Origin: Eledone cirrhosa
Taxonomy: Eukaryota
Length of the DNA: 64,000 nt
Direction: 5' to 3'
Assembly (NCBI GenBank): GCA_964016885.1
Contig: OZ024753.1
Location: 6,758,001-6,822,000, forward strand
Part shown: positions 2,881 to 59,012 of the stretch, piece after piece
Layout of the letters: the number at the start of each line of letters is the position of its first letter
Numbering within the stretch: position 1 is the stretch's first letter
The notes under the pieces: model-generated
Seen by the model: the letters and a program-made list of their open reading frames with translations, nothing else
The model's database searches: none
What the model was told of the DNA's origin: nothing
Position numbers and translations under genes: made by a program

Positions 2881-3393
2881 ACGATATTAACAAATGGAAA
2901 CTATATTTATAAAACCATATTTATTTCATTATACATATTTCAAGGACACCAAGTTAAATTATGGTGTGCTTTCATCAGATAAAATATAATAAAGATCAGT
3001 TTTATAAATAAATATTGTAGCCATCATGGCTTGTAGCATCTCATGGCAAAATAAACTGATAGGAGTAGATGACTTCGTAGAGACAGCGAAATGATAAATA
3101 CAACAACTACTAATAGTGTAAGAGAGAGAGGAAGAGAGTAGATGATTTGGTAGAGGGACAGCATGGGAAAAGAAAATTATTTATAAAACTGATCTATATT
3201 ATATTTCATCTGATGAAAGCACACCATAATTTAACTTGGTGTCCTTCAATTATGTATAATGAAATAAATATGGTTTTATAAATATAGTTTTCATTTGTTA
3301 ATATCGTATGTTTACTCCAAATATTTGTTGAGTGCTTTATATTAGTTATAAAAATATTTGGTTGTTGTATCCCAACAATTTAAATAGAACTTT
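2881..3393. mobile_element. Inverted-repeat Penelope-like terminal insert, family B
   Basis: Arms ~2881-3013 and ~3176-3307, ~160-bp spacer, tail 3308-3393; related copies at 42361, 51841 and 60633. Confidence 0.8.
2922..2986 (-). ncRNA. Type I hammerhead ribozyme motif (family B)
   Basis: Minus strand: TATTTTAT-CTGATGA-aagcacacca...tggtgtcctt-GAAA-T-ATGT-A-TA-ATGAAATA; the mirror copy at 3202-3266 has GAAA changed to CAAT. Confidence 0.75.
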
Positions 3394-3580
3394 TACACAC
3401 ACATATATATATGTATATATATATATATACATACACACATATATATATATATATACATATATATTTATACATATACATATATATGCACACACACATATAT
3501 ATATATATATATATATATATATATATATATATGTATATATATATATGAATGTGTGAGTCCATAACACCAATCAAACCCCT

Positions 3581-3640
3581 TTTATAGCTCTGACGAATCC
3601 TACGGTTACACGTAAGGAAGAAACATTGTTAGCCAATAAA
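3581..3640 (+). ncRNA. Type I hammerhead motif in a TA-flanked insert (~3547-3680)
   Basis: GCT-CTGACGA-atcctacg(gttaca)cgtaaggaa-GAAA-cattg-TT-AGC. Confidence 0.65.
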
Positions 3641-3900
3641 AATCTTTTGATGTTGTAGACGCTCTTGTGTTCTTTTTCATATATATACATATATATTATA
3701 TTATATTCATTTATACATATACACATATATACACACACACATATATGTGTGTGTCTGTGTGTGTGGGTAAGTATATATATATATATATATATATATATAT
3801 ATATATATACACACACAAAATATATATATATATATATACACACACAAATTATATATATTCATACATACATATATGTAAGTAAGTATATATATATATATAT

Positions 3901-4012
3901 ATTTATTAAAATAACAGATTAAAGTCTAAGCAAAGAATCGCTGCTTTCACCCTTAACGGGATCTTCATCGAGCCCTCTTTGGATTTTAGTCTTCAATTTT
4001 ATTATTATTACT
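3901..4012. mobile_element. Penelope-like terminal insert, family C
   Basis: TA-flanked; homologous to 34273-34420, 42564-42795 and 52325-52435; degenerate GAAGA...GAAA core on the minus strand. Confidence 0.6.
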
Positions 4013-4389
4013 ATATATATATATATATATATATTATATTCATTTATACATATACACATATATACACACACACATATATGTGTGTGTCTGTGTGTGTGGG
4101 TAAGTATATATATATATATATATATATATATATATATATATATACACACACAAAATATATATATATATATACACACACAAATTATATATATTCATACATA
4201 CATATATGTAAGTAAGTATATATATATATATATATATGCACTTACATGTGTATGTTTTAATTGATTGGAGGACATTTCTAGTTTATATAATTAATTATTC
4301 CTGGTGTAATTTTCAGCAATACAAAATATTTCTCCATGATTGTTTATCATGGTTTAACCCTTGTAGTTCCTTACTTTTATTGTCGCCAT

Positions 4390-5285
4390 TATCACTGCCA
4401 TCACCATCACCATCACCACCACCATTACTGCAAACATCATCACCATCATCAACACATCACCATCACCATCACCATCACCATTACTGCAAACATCATCACT
4501 GCCATCACCATCACCATCACCATTACTGCAAACATCATCACCATCATCAACACATCACCATCACCATCACCATCACCATTACTGCAAACATCATCACTGC
4601 CATCACCATCACCATTACTGCAAACATCATCACCACCATCACCATCACCATTACTGCAAACATCATCACTGCCATCACCATCACCATTACTGCAAACATC
4701 ATCACCATCACCATCACCATTACTGCAAACCTCATCACCATCATCAACACATCACCATCACCATTACTGCAAACCTCATCACCATCACCATCACCATTAC
4801 TGCAAACCTCATCACCATCACCATCACCATTACTGCAAACATCATCAGCATCATCAACATCCTCACCTTCATCGTCACGGTCACTACTAACATCATCATC
4901 AGCCGCAGCACTGCCAATATCGTCATCACCATCATCATCACCGGCACTACCAATATCGTCATCACCATCATCATCACCAAAACCATCACCAGCACTGCCA
5001 ATATCGTCATCACCATCATCATCACCAACACCATCACCAGCACTACCAATATCGTCATCACAATCATCATCACCAACATCATCACCAGCACTACCAATAT
5101 CGTCATCACCATCATCATCACCAACACCATCACCAGCACTACCAATATCGTCATCACCATCATCATCACCAACATCATCACTAGCACTGCCAATATCGTC
5201 ATCATCATCACCATCATTATCACTACCATTACCATCACCAACCATCACCACCATCATCATCACCATCACCATTATTATCATCACC
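4390..5285. repeat. (CAT/CAC)n trinucleotide-derived repeat with higher-order units
   Basis: Recurrent CACCATTACTGCAAACATCAT and CACTACCAATATCGTCATCACC units. Confidence 0.9.
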
Positions 5286-6889
5286 ATCGGTTGTTGATGT
5301 TGCTGTTGGTATTTTTTGTTTTTATTATTGTTGCTGTTGGTATTGTTGCTGTTGTTGTTGGTGGTATTGTTTTTATTGTTGCTGTTGGTGGTATTGTTGT
5401 TTGATGTGGTTGATAGTGATGATGATGTTTATGTCGGCAGTGGGAGATGTCCTGGTGATGTTGACGAAGACAACAGGCGGATATTAACCATGTTTTTCTT
5501 TAATATATATATATATATATATATATATACATATATATATATATATACAAATGAATATATGATAGGGATAAACACTAATACAAGTATACATGTGTTTGCA
5601 TTACAAATGACTGAGTTAGCTAGATTGAAAAATACTAATTAAAATAATACGCTTTGCCTGTCTCGATTTAAAATAATAAATCAGTAAAAACAAACCTATA
5701 TTGGCAACAGCCGTGATACCTGGACAAATTTTAAATTTTAAATTTTAAATTTGTTTCGCAACAATTAAGTGAAAATTCCTATTCCTGTGGTCTTCTGCAG
5801 ATATCCAGAAATTGGTAAGTTTCAGTTCAAAATAATTAAGACTGAGAGAAATGTGTTGTTGAACGCACATGTGTTACAGCGACTAGCATGTTTCATTCTC
5901 GTGCCGCTAAAAATAGCAGCCGATTTTATGGGACTAAAAATTAGCTCACGTATGGAGCCGAGAATATTATATATAGAGTTATTTGCAATGCAAACGCATG
6001 TATACTTGTATCAGTGTTTATCCCTATCATATATTCATTTGTATTACACAGCACATAAATATTCCTTTCTTTGAGCTATTTAATTGTAAAAGAATATTTG
6101 AGTTTATAACTCTATATATAATATATATATATATTATATATATATATATTTCAAAACGAACCAAAACCAAACAGCAATGTCTAAAAATGGTTTAGAATGG
6201 AAAATACACTGTTAAAGTATTTGGAATGTTCTGGAAAAAAATCATGATTTCCCTAAAGGTAAGTTTAGTAAATATAGATTCTCTGTCATACATCACACCG
6301 TTGATTTCGTCTCCAGTTTGTTTTTTATCATCGTGCGTTTATTTCTCATTGTTCATGTCTCTTTCTTTAATTCTATCATTTCTCTTCTCTTCCATTATTT
6401 AAATTATATACATATCTTCTACACCTATATACACACGGCACCAACAAATACACTTCATATTTTACACAAATAACGGAAATACACATACACACACAGACAG
6501 ACATACACACACACACACGTATATATATATATATATATATATATATATATATATATATATATATATATATATATATATATATATATATATACGTATATAA
6601 CCACATCCATAGAGAAATAGGCCTACGCACATCCTTTTTCATTTCTTAATTTTAATAATAATAACAATAATAAAAATAAATATACATATATATATTATAT
6701 ACATATATATAATACATATGTGTATGCATATAAATATATATATATGTGTGACTAAACGTTTCGTATATATATATATATAATATATATATATATATATATA
6801 TATATATATATATATATATATATATGTAAAAGGTAAACAGTATATGGAAGGTATATATTAGGTTAACGCTTGATATAGCAGGAAGAGGG

Positions 6890-6926
6890 TCTTAACGTTT
6901 CGGACTGCTAGTCCTTCATCAGAAGA
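6890..6926 (-). ncRNA. Minimal hammerhead motif (family D, insert ~6826-7020)
   Basis: Minus strand: TCTT-CTGATGA-a-GGAC(tagca)GTCC-GAAA-CG-TT-AAGA; palindromic AACGTT stem III. Confidence 0.75.
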
Positions 6927-57673: not shown

Positions 57674-57728
57674 ACTGCTATATATATTTCGGTGACAGCC
57701 ATCTTTGGCTGTGACCTCTTCAGGCAGT
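57674..57728 (-). ncRNA. Complete type I hammerhead motif (family J, insert ~57528-57922)
   Basis: Minus strand: ACTGC-CTGAAGA-ggtcacagcca(aaga)tggctgtcacc-GAAA-T-ATAT-A-TA-GCAGT. Confidence 0.85.
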
Positions 57729-57974
57729 CCGAATTAGTGTGGTAGAGACAAGTACATATGTTGTTGAGGTGTATAATTTTGTCAATACTCTGATATGCCC
57801 AGTTCCTGGTTGGGTTGTTATTTCACTGAGAAACTGGAATCATATGAATTCAAACAAACGAATTTCAGTGTCAAAGGGCCTCTTCTCCTCTCATTGGTCA
57901 GTTGTTAGAACATTTTATTTTATTATATATATATATATATATATATATATATATGTATATGTATATATATATAT

Positions 57975-58200
57975 ACACAGCAATATGCACGGTTAGTTGT
58001 GGGGTCTAGTCTGCATGAAGAACTCAATGTAATCCATATGTTGAAAATGTTGTAGGTTAAAATAAATCCCGGAAAACAAAACATCAAAAGGAAAACAGTG
58101 TCATGATATAAGTTAAAACAATGAAATAAAAATTCAAGTCATTAGAAATATATTTCACCTAATGAAATTGAATTTTTATTTCATTGTTTTAACTCATATA
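57975..58200. mobile_element. Palindromic TA-flanked insert, family M
   Basis: Arms ~58108-58137 and ~58168-58198; no clear ribozyme core. Confidence 0.55.
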
Positions 58201-58288
58201 TATACATATATAAGTTAAAATATAAGTCCCAGGGCTCTGATACCATCAACACTATACACACAGAGCTGGCATATCTAAGAACTGACTA

Positions 58289-58344
58289 ACTGCCTGATGA
58301 GGTCATAGACATTCAATGGCTATCATCGAAATATATATAGCAGT
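58289..58344 (+). ncRNA. Type I hammerhead motif (family J-related insert ~58205-58390)
   Basis: ACTGC-CTGATGA-ggtcatagaca..tggctatcatc-GAAA-TATATA-TA-GCAGT. Confidence 0.8.
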
Positions 58345-58414
58345 AAATAAAGGATTATGAGTTCATGCAATTGACTTATGTTTCGTCATTATATATATAT
58401 ATATAGAGAGAGAG

Positions 58415-58556
58415 AGAAATGGCTTCTACAGGACTCGAACTGTTTCATTCGAAGAAAACAGTTCTAGTCCTGTAGAAGCCATTTCTATATTAAATATATA
58501 TACTCTGCTATGTATTGAGTACCTTACTTACTGTGGTTACCCCCGATTGAACCCGT
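58415..58556. mobile_element. Family G palindromic insert
   Basis: AGAAATGGCTTCTACAGGACT...AGTCCTGTAGAAGCCATTTCT plus tail. Confidence 0.75.
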
Positions 58557-58593
58557 TATATATATATATATATATATATATATATATATATAT

Positions 58594-59012
58594 ATAATAT
58601 AAGATCAAAAGATGGTTAAAGGAGTTCCATGTATTTTATTATGCGCATTTCAAAAACAAACATCATCATGCAATAATATTTGTGTTTTCATCAGATAAAA
58701 CAGGAGAACATGATATGAAGGCTAAAAACACTTGTGGATAGTGCAGTTTTAAATCAACATGTTGATTTAAAACTGCACTATCCACAAGTGTTTTTAACCT
58801 TCATATCATGTATTCCTGTTTTATCTGATGAAAACACAAATATTATTGCATGATGATGTTTGTTTTTGAAATGCGCATAATAAAATACATGGAACTCCTT
58901 TAACCATCTTTTGATCTTATATTATGTATACTCCAGTCCTACAAACTGTAGAGTGCTTCTTTTCCGATATCTGCATTGCTTTATTGTACTACAATAAAAC
59001 TCACCATCCTAC
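58594..59012. mobile_element. Spacerless 332-bp palindrome plus tail, family K
   Basis: Axis between 58759 and 58760 (AACA|TGTT); arms extend to 58594 and 58925; tail 58926-59012. Confidence 0.85.
58819..58885 (+). ncRNA. Type I hammerhead motif (family K; mirror copy 58634-58700 minus)
   Basis: TTTTAT-CTGATGA-aaacacaaatatta..tgatgtttgttttt-GAAA-T-GCGC-A-TA-ATAAAA. Confidence 0.8.

Follow-up and report, generated by a model that had tools for sequence, protein, structure and literature searches.

The closest described relatives of the repeats analysed here are the Hydra-clade Penelope-like elements of Craig et al. 2021 (PMC8557442). Our repeats lie in a 64,000-nucleotide stretch of the 3.0-Gb animal genome of Eledone cirrhosa (contig OZ024753.1, positions 6,758,001 to 6,822,000; hereafter the window), and statements on the literature refer to the consulted parts of each source. 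Both groups have one open reading frame (ORF) containing RW(K/R), DKT and YRDD motifs, a CxCx5C linker and C-terminal CxxC and CxH motifs; a hammerhead ribozyme in the pseudo-long terminal repeat (pLTR); (TA)n targets; an inverted truncated copy; and a tail at one end. That work ascribes tails of 30-40 bp to resolution by the endonuclease (EN), and its consulted parts do not mention the motif described below, whereas tails here measure ~60-110 nucleotides (nt) and match the spacing of two hairpins. Its Hydra clade is generally <3 kb, whereas the parent of our family B is ~4 kb; in the present genome, moreover, members of the clade are young and very abundant. PAc, a Poseidon element of Anolis (Frangieh et al. 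2024, PMC11167929), has two internal reverse transcriptase (RT) starts that match both tail ends in vitro, a predicted dimer and, as here, ends that are not defined by the hammerhead cut site. It differs in that initiation occurs in an AC-rich stem loop inside the ORF, with no binding motif defined; comparing PAc by its description, we find instead a duplicated covarying motif 3′ of each site, in the 5′ untranslated region (UTR). Non-LTR (long terminal repeat) retrozymes (PMC7229834; bioRxiv 10.64898/2026.07.22.740005) derive from Penelope-like elements and are short and non-coding, with a hammerhead; they are resembled by short tandem arrays built from the ends of our families E and G, whereas the copies in the window occur as single insertions joined head to head, often carrying half a hammerhead, and could be traced to coding parents.

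Already known were internal initiation and the clade itself, together with hammerhead, inverted structure and tail. We found no description of the motif or its duplication in the literature searched, a search outside which lay Repbase, Dfam, bioRxiv supplements and figures. On start-site choice by Penelope-like elements, and on why one end of their insertions bears a tail, the one in vitro study reported two internal starts and no signal. Here we describe a conserved, base-paired tail motif that is followed by a second such motif; the pair is located between hammerhead and start codon, each member a few bases 3′ of a site where copies end, and each probably acts as an RNA hairpin that binds the RT and sets a start site.

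Hydra-clade parents of the head-to-head insertions

The window holds about 20 elements with a common layout: (TA)n, an inverted arm, an optional spacer, a direct arm, a tail and (TA)n. Six families are named B, E, G, H, J and K, and their principal features are as follows.

2874..3393, + strand: family B insertion, (TA)n-flanked, with inverted arm 2882-3011, direct arm 3177-3306, a spacer between them and a tail
3314..3336, + strand: motif copy 1 in the B tail, halves TACTCC/GAGTGCT at 3313/3330
3362..3378, + strand: 6-bp hairpin of the B tail, family-specific, from folding
7089..7273, + strand: family E insertion, a 105-bp palindrome with only the 3′ half of the hammerhead, then an 80-nt tail
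7202..7228, + strand: motif copy 1 in the E tail, halves CACTCT/GAGTACT at 7201/7222
41895..42276, + strand: family H insertion, arms 41895-42200 and tail; motif ~42207-42234, with one stem change and halves TACTAT/GAGTGCT at 42206/42228
57528..58354, − strand: family J insertion with one arm at 57665-57728 and the other at 58289-58354; its long-loop motif spans 57574-57616, with GAGTGCT at 57580-57574 and the 5′ half at 57616
58415..58556, + strand: family G insertion, motif 58502-58523, halves TACTCT/GAGTACC at 58501/58517
58597..59012, + strand: family K insertion, palindrome 58602-58917 and a 90-nt tail, (TA)n runs on either side
58820..58884, + strand: in the direct arm of K, match to the type I minimal hammerhead pattern (pattern only), helix III being palindromic; mirrored at 58635-58699 on the − strand
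58930..58957, + strand: motif copy 1 in the K tail, halves TACTCC/GAGTGCT at 58929/58951
58980..58998, + strand: 8-bp hairpin of the K tail with a 3-nt loop, family-specific, from folding

These repeats are 5′-truncated head-to-head insertions of Hydra-clade Penelope-like elements. A preliminary description of the window had proposed a Penelope-like origin for what it called unrelated families. The origin is borne out, as parent ORFs were located for 6/6 named families. The families are nonetheless related, because the other aligned parent proteins (four parents were aligned) are 41-56% identical to the first, and all six families belong to the Hydra clade. The 3′ end of the B insertion matches that of an intact Hydra-type element with a 738-amino-acid (aa) ORF encoding an RT and, at its C terminus, a GIY-YIG endonuclease; at least 150 places are identical to this ORF across 142 aa, and the tails of K, E, G, H and J run on into ORFs of the same type. 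A 737-aa structural model was predicted with a pLDDT (predicted local distance difference test score) of 92.4, its top four fold matches all being TERT (best E value 1.4e-9). The closest named proteins come from an octopod (36-41% identity). A Pfam search with a 497-aa part of the ORF gave no match, Rfam at the gathering score gave none, hammerhead included, and the viral contigs searched held no relative.

Using the motif names of PMC8557442, we read the GIY-YIG endonuclease from a C-terminal IVY..YVG segment with downstream R and N, for which there was no profile match. The B parent has RIRWR, SDKT, CNCRDRSKC, one Cys in the GIY-YIG core, CDLC and CKH; judged from the protein sequence, these motifs match the Hydra-clade definition of that paper (RWK, DKT, a CxCx5C linker, absence of a CCHH finger, and CxxC and CxH at the C terminus). 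A 30-protein tree covered only our own and metagenome sequences. The type I minimal hammerhead pattern is present in both K arms, and cores were recognized by eye in the B, E, G and J parents; minimal hammerheads of this kind are known from the pLTRs of Penelope-like elements (PMC4209133). Tandem copies of the B parent show internal junctions from pLTR to ORF, and the insertion target is (TA)n, as in the Hydra clade. The B parent unit measures ~4 kb (arm-end spacing 3.9-4.1 kb) and that of E ~3.5 kb (tandem spacing), both above the <3 kb that PMC8557442 gives as a general, not a strict, trait of the clade. The Naiad clade, which has an N-terminal EN and no canonical hammerhead, was rejected given the C-terminal EN and the hammerhead pattern found here, and Nematis was rejected as well. 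We also rejected a miniature inverted-repeat transposable element (MITE) or other autonomously copied palindrome: 14 K copies have 0 shared arm asymmetries, and the arms extend into long coding parents. A tRNA-like head seen by eye on the reverse strand was dropped after ORF-bearing parents turned up.

One very young Hydra-type family, with many intact 738-aa ORFs, at least 150 places identical across 142 aa and head-to-tail arrays (for example, L111-L130; C7:78454763-78463084), and with an initial count of 61,913 candidates, is probably active. Element ends also occur in short tandem arrays (L145-L146, L156; C2:356030064-356031905), including G units and E units of 257 bp and 299 bp. The two E units contain both motifs and the ORF start; the arrays are retrozyme-like and possible masters. 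At L153 (G000:C1:89657092-89660137) a G-family tail is fused straight to the middle of a non-Hydra Penelope-like RT ORF, which looks like a template switch between clades.

A positioned and duplicated hairpin motif

The tail motif is a base-paired stem, RCUC-Y[loop]R-UN-GAGY-RCU, in which RCUC pairs with GAGY. Next come a bulge of 2 nt, the first of them U, then a Y-R pair, and then an inner stem that is short and differs in length between copies; RCU follows the stem. The preliminary description had listed the two halves in the tails of B, K, E, G, H and J, and all six are where it placed them; it had missed that they pair around a 2-nt bulge, that the motif occurs twice in the parents and that the second copy explains the far end of the tail. 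It had also counted small terminal hairpins into the conserved element. Both hairpins exist (3362-3378 and 58980-58998), but they are family-specific, and the K loop is of 3 nt, not 1 nt. A conserved terminal hairpin was rejected, since shuffled sequences fold as well as the spacers that separate the twin motifs (mean z -0.16; 3/28 spacers below -1.64).

Enrichment was assessed in the window and 60 further stretches (~0.66 Mb), in which tailed elements were sought without use of the motif. This search yielded 94 tailed elements in 35 clusters; with 3 artefact clusters and tails <40 nt left out, 31 clusters with 81 elements remained. Between -10 and +20 nt from the arm end, the strict motif is present in the first member of 7/31 clusters, and in at least half of the members of 10/31. 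The controls gave 0/31 on the reverse strand, 0/31 in the arms, and a mean of 0.11 and a maximum of 2 in 1,000 shuffles. The motif is found in 38/81 elements, and in 22 of those 38 it lies 6-8 nt past the arm end, in keeping with the fixed distance from the arm boundary that the preliminary description had implied. The motif is thus real and positioned, yet many tailed families are without it, and it is not, as had been supposed, general to hairpin-plus-tail repeats. Genome-wide, a narrower pattern gave 93,341 matches, compared with 2,564 for a reversed control, one family dominating. The strict motif is absent from the three further 3′ ends checked, two of which are Neptune-like and one Penelope-like as judged from clade motifs. 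One Hydra-type family has a variant with a one-base bulge that fails the strict pattern. As a separate observation, the Neptune-/Penelope-like elements at L061:1-2000, L077:190-1940 and L080:3950-7900 have hammerhead cores and tails of their own and no motif; such elements may use a different start signal.

In tandem copies of the B parent, the tail leads to a second motif, with a G-C basal pair replacing A-U, and then to the ATG. A second copy was accordingly predicted in the other families ahead of the searches. It was found after the tail, just before the start codon, in 5 of the 6 named families: in 98 of the 100 matches listed for K (262 matches) and 98 of the 100 listed for E (305 matches), in 18/20 for H, and in ~63/98 for J, the remainder being mostly repeat flanks. 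Reversed-pattern controls gave 0. In family I, a second motif with a Hydra-type ORF (locus L172) was met by chance. The full second motif was not found in G (8 matches, mostly chance or rearranged), the G parent having at that site just a 4-bp stem with a 5-nt loop. Both copies lie ~30-170 nt from the ORF start, ~58 to 91 nt apart, and a U/A-rich patch precedes both sites. Inspected by eye, the six Hydra consensi in File S7 of PMC8557442 include three with a clear motif (Hydra-1_Ajap, with two copies before the ATG, and Hydra-2_Amil and Hydra-2_Ajap, with one near the 3′ end), two with variants (Hydra-1_Crog and Hydra-1_Amil) and one, Hydra-1_Obim, with none clear.

Insertion ends mostly lie close to one of the two copies. 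Among 198 junctions between element and (TA)n, 166 are found 0-9 nt to the 5′ side of either copy (K, 52/52; E, 45/47; G, 21/27; B, 48/72), and an unselected set of loci has the same two peaks. Of the first 100 of 3166 J tail ends, 95 stop short of copy 2 and 5 read through. We fetched 20 B-parent stretches and obtained 15 insertions with both ends visible: 14/15 have one short and one tailed end, one has two tails and none has two short ends, an outcome with a chance of ~0.0005 for at least 14/15 mixed ends if ends were independent at even odds. The side with the tail varies in these insertions, being the full-length or the truncated one. The arms of 14 K copies, parsed from 22 loci, share no asymmetry, and two private changes are mirrored in both arms. 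This is what would be expected if one template region gave rise to both arms at every insertion, and the idea that K is copied as an entire palindrome was rejected. Within each family the hairpin centres cluster, at about -60 to -72 from motif 1 in E, -65 to -79 in G and ~-172 in K. Those of E and G fall inside the hammerhead (window 7089-7193 and 58415-58486; the K palindrome spans 58602-58917), so these families keep half a ribozyme. The hammerhead cut site was rejected as the origin of the centres, which cluster upstream of the cut and may mark the transcript start.

As a further observation at junctions, 26/100 J long-end junctions have (CT)n of at least two units, grown from a template TCT, before the (TA)n, and older H and B copies have (CA)n (window 42274-42290 and 3393-3402). 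These repeats could be RT stutter at initiation; slippage after insertion is favoured, because young K and B copies show none.

The motif extends to other hosts. Genome bins and marine metagenomes yielded 91 Hydra-like loci, which are probably animal DNA in the samples; 13 contigs filed as bacterial genome bins (L283-L295) likewise contain Hydra-type animal retroelements, probably through host contamination. Upstream of the ORFs there are 64 motif matches in 11.8 kb, compared with 8 on the reverse strand and, within the ORFs, 49 in 181 kb. For 35 loci the upstream sequence extends to 175 nt or more; of these, two copies are present in 21, a single copy in 10 and none in 4. The three bases after the stem are ACT in 53/68 distinct matches, though the pattern did not demand them. 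The bulge U is invariant in 59/59 aligned motifs, a position demanded by the search pattern. Excluding junctions at contig ends, 6/9 flank junctions in the metagenome loci fall 0-4 nt before a copy. The motif is conserved amid unconserved UTR sequence, across elements ~35-50% identical in protein.

MAFFT was unusable on motifs of variable length, and covariation was therefore examined in an alignment made with a model seeded with 16 equal-length copies, which leans towards the given structure. It has 114 distinct rows, in which 95% of cells are paired; the Y-R pair is CG in 75 rows and UA in 34, and two-sided changes number 83, compared with 28 in shuffles. On the quick 30-protein tree the Y-R pair of copy 1 swaps five times, at least four of these being forced by well-supported branches. 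The structural covariation that the preliminary description had left to be looked for is thus found, with at least four independent compensatory swaps.

Proposed start-site selection and its alternatives

From the coding parents, the twin motif, its covariation, the junction positions and the paired use of ends, we infer the following course of insertion. The endonuclease would nick both strands of the (TA)n target. One RT active site would sit at hairpin 1 and another at hairpin 2, possibly as a dimer, each priming on the sense RNA 3-7 nt upstream of its own hairpin, on the short U/A patch. The two cDNAs would extend towards the RNA 5′ end and then join head to head; the cDNA begun at hairpin 2 would carry hairpin 1 as its 'tail', and the other would be tailless. 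This course agrees with the two internal starts observed in vitro for the Poseidon element PAc (PMC11167929), and the proposal of the preliminary description, that the element positions the RT and defines the internal start point, fits the data. If each hairpin sets a start site, the tail is simply the spacing between the two. Hairpin 2 would be copied just in tandem read-through copies, and solitary hairpin-plus-tail copies, which lack it, would mostly be dead-end products.

We tentatively suggest a more specific and rather doubtful form of this model, a two-headed target-primed reverse transcription (TPRT) in which an RT dimer would work on two portable 21-nt bulged hairpins, read in a TAR-like manner by an arginine-rich segment, and cDNA would start on both target strands, a few bases upstream of each hairpin. 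In the arginine sandwich of HIV TAR and 7SK (PMC6189040), as in our motif, a bulged U follows a Watson-Crick pair and precedes G-C, A-U and G-C pairs, so by analogy the bulge could form an arginine-binding U.A-U triple, and our guess is that the Arg-rich RxRW segment would read the hairpin. In TAR and 7SK, by contrast, the loop closes the opposite stem, and the likeness is one of secondary structure alone. Were this two-headed form true, the tail would simply reflect how far apart the two copies of the start signal lie, and an RNA of any kind with two such hairpins could be written into (TA)n DNA from both strands.

Several observations weigh against the proposal that the hairpins set the start sites. 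The outer CUC/GAG pairs are nearly invariant and, because they hardly vary, give little covariation support. Window copies score weakly (E 0.1-0.8) with the model built from the metagenome loci, which at E 5 fails to detect K and J. The stem appears in the minimum-energy fold of 0/6 window tails and, among four twin-motif regions folded, forms in copy 1 of the B parent only, so it would need protein to form; isolated motifs have mean energies of -3.9 kcal/mol (sense) and -4.1 kcal/mol (antisense), a weak stem. A comparison of G-U with A-C pairs, which bears on the strand that folds, gave 14 and 9 and favours neither strand clearly. Neptune-like elements have tails without the motif, which is therefore not required for tails in general. 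Of the B junctions, 24/72 lie elsewhere, some probably mis-calls in AT-rich sequence, and many junction loci came from tail-sequence searches and are thus not a random sample. Finally, G has a sharp long end yet a reduced second stem.

Some of these points bear on alternatives. If the motif acted in DNA, the endonuclease would recognize a tandem or single-stranded intermediate and cut just 5′ of it, and the ends would reflect resolution, not RT starts. The junction pattern equally suits cutting at a fixed distance, PMC8557442 attributes the tail to EN-mediated resolution, and the D. virilis EN required tail sequence for recognition (PMC11167929). We consider this unlikely, because inner stems that vary in length and show compensatory swaps indicate folding of a single strand rather than a site in duplex DNA, and because internal initiation on sense RNA at the tail ends was observed in vitro in another clade (PMC11167929). 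An antisense template could instead self-prime at the hairpin centre, as PMC3846280 argues, with the complement of the motif acting as an RT stop like the template boundary of telomerase. The private changes mirrored in both K arms fit this reading, as do the RT fold closest to TERT, the G-U and A-C counts that favour neither strand clearly and an isolated motif that folds as well in antisense. It would, however, require a separate way of joining both stop ends to the target, whereas the U/A-rich patch before both sites suits priming by (TA)n and the pairing of a short with a long end in 14/15 insertions is simpler with two primed starts; we regard it as quite improbable.

To much the same low degree we would credit a role for the hairpins as protein-binding sites for cis-preference or translational control, the ends then being set by neighbouring UA microhomology. 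The proximity of both copies to the ORF start, the U/A patches before them and the sharp G end despite its poor second stem are all compatible with that role, but the many other TA steps in these AT-rich UTRs go unused (junctions elsewhere: K 0/52, E 2/47), and the distance to the stem holds while copy spacing varies. That the motif reflects shared descent or chance, with neither structure nor function, is very improbable indeed: the families are related and the stem is weak, yet the motif is kept where the adjoining UTR is not, at ~35-50% protein identity, and with repeated two-sided swaps.

The proposed initiation at the two hairpins lends itself to direct experiment by mutation, since the motif is short, duplicated and covarying and keeps a fixed distance from either end. 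The motif also offers an RNA ligand for structural work on a telomerase-related RT and an annotation marker for a very abundant class of repeats; if the signal is portable, it may serve RNA-templated insertion.

Further insertions and neighbouring repeats

Other insertions in the window include further members of these families and one insertion that lacks the motif.

2023..2377, − strand: hairpin-plus-tail insertion, no motif found in the motif search
20920..20943, − strand: tail motif of a further insertion, with the G-C basal pair that is common among other hosts; best match in the window of the metagenome-loci model (E 0.00018)
23720..23741, − strand: motif copy 1, by pattern search, in a second G-family insertion (23679-23858)
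42452..42474, + strand: motif copy 1, by pattern search, in an internally deleted B copy (42362-42529)
42565..42791, − strand: family I insertion, long-loop motif 42600-42648
59503..60170, + strand: insertion whose arms measure 273 bp; its motif is a long-loop variant outside the strict pattern
60258..60440, − strand: third insertion of family G, whose motif carries a small duplication near 60302-60329
60911..61076, + strand: second E-family insertion, motif 61005-61031

An abundant dispersed repeat of ~190 bp, probably a short interspersed nuclear element (SINE), occurs at window positions 7324-7504, 13071-13812, 50600-51340 and 56013-57270 and in about 30 other places. About 120 kb past the window lies an apparently intact long interspersed nuclear element (LINE) with two long ORFs and an AP (apurinic/apyrimidinic)-endonuclease-like start (L033:4831-9017). 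Window positions 45713-46474 form a direct tandem duplication of 380 bp with 97.6% identity.

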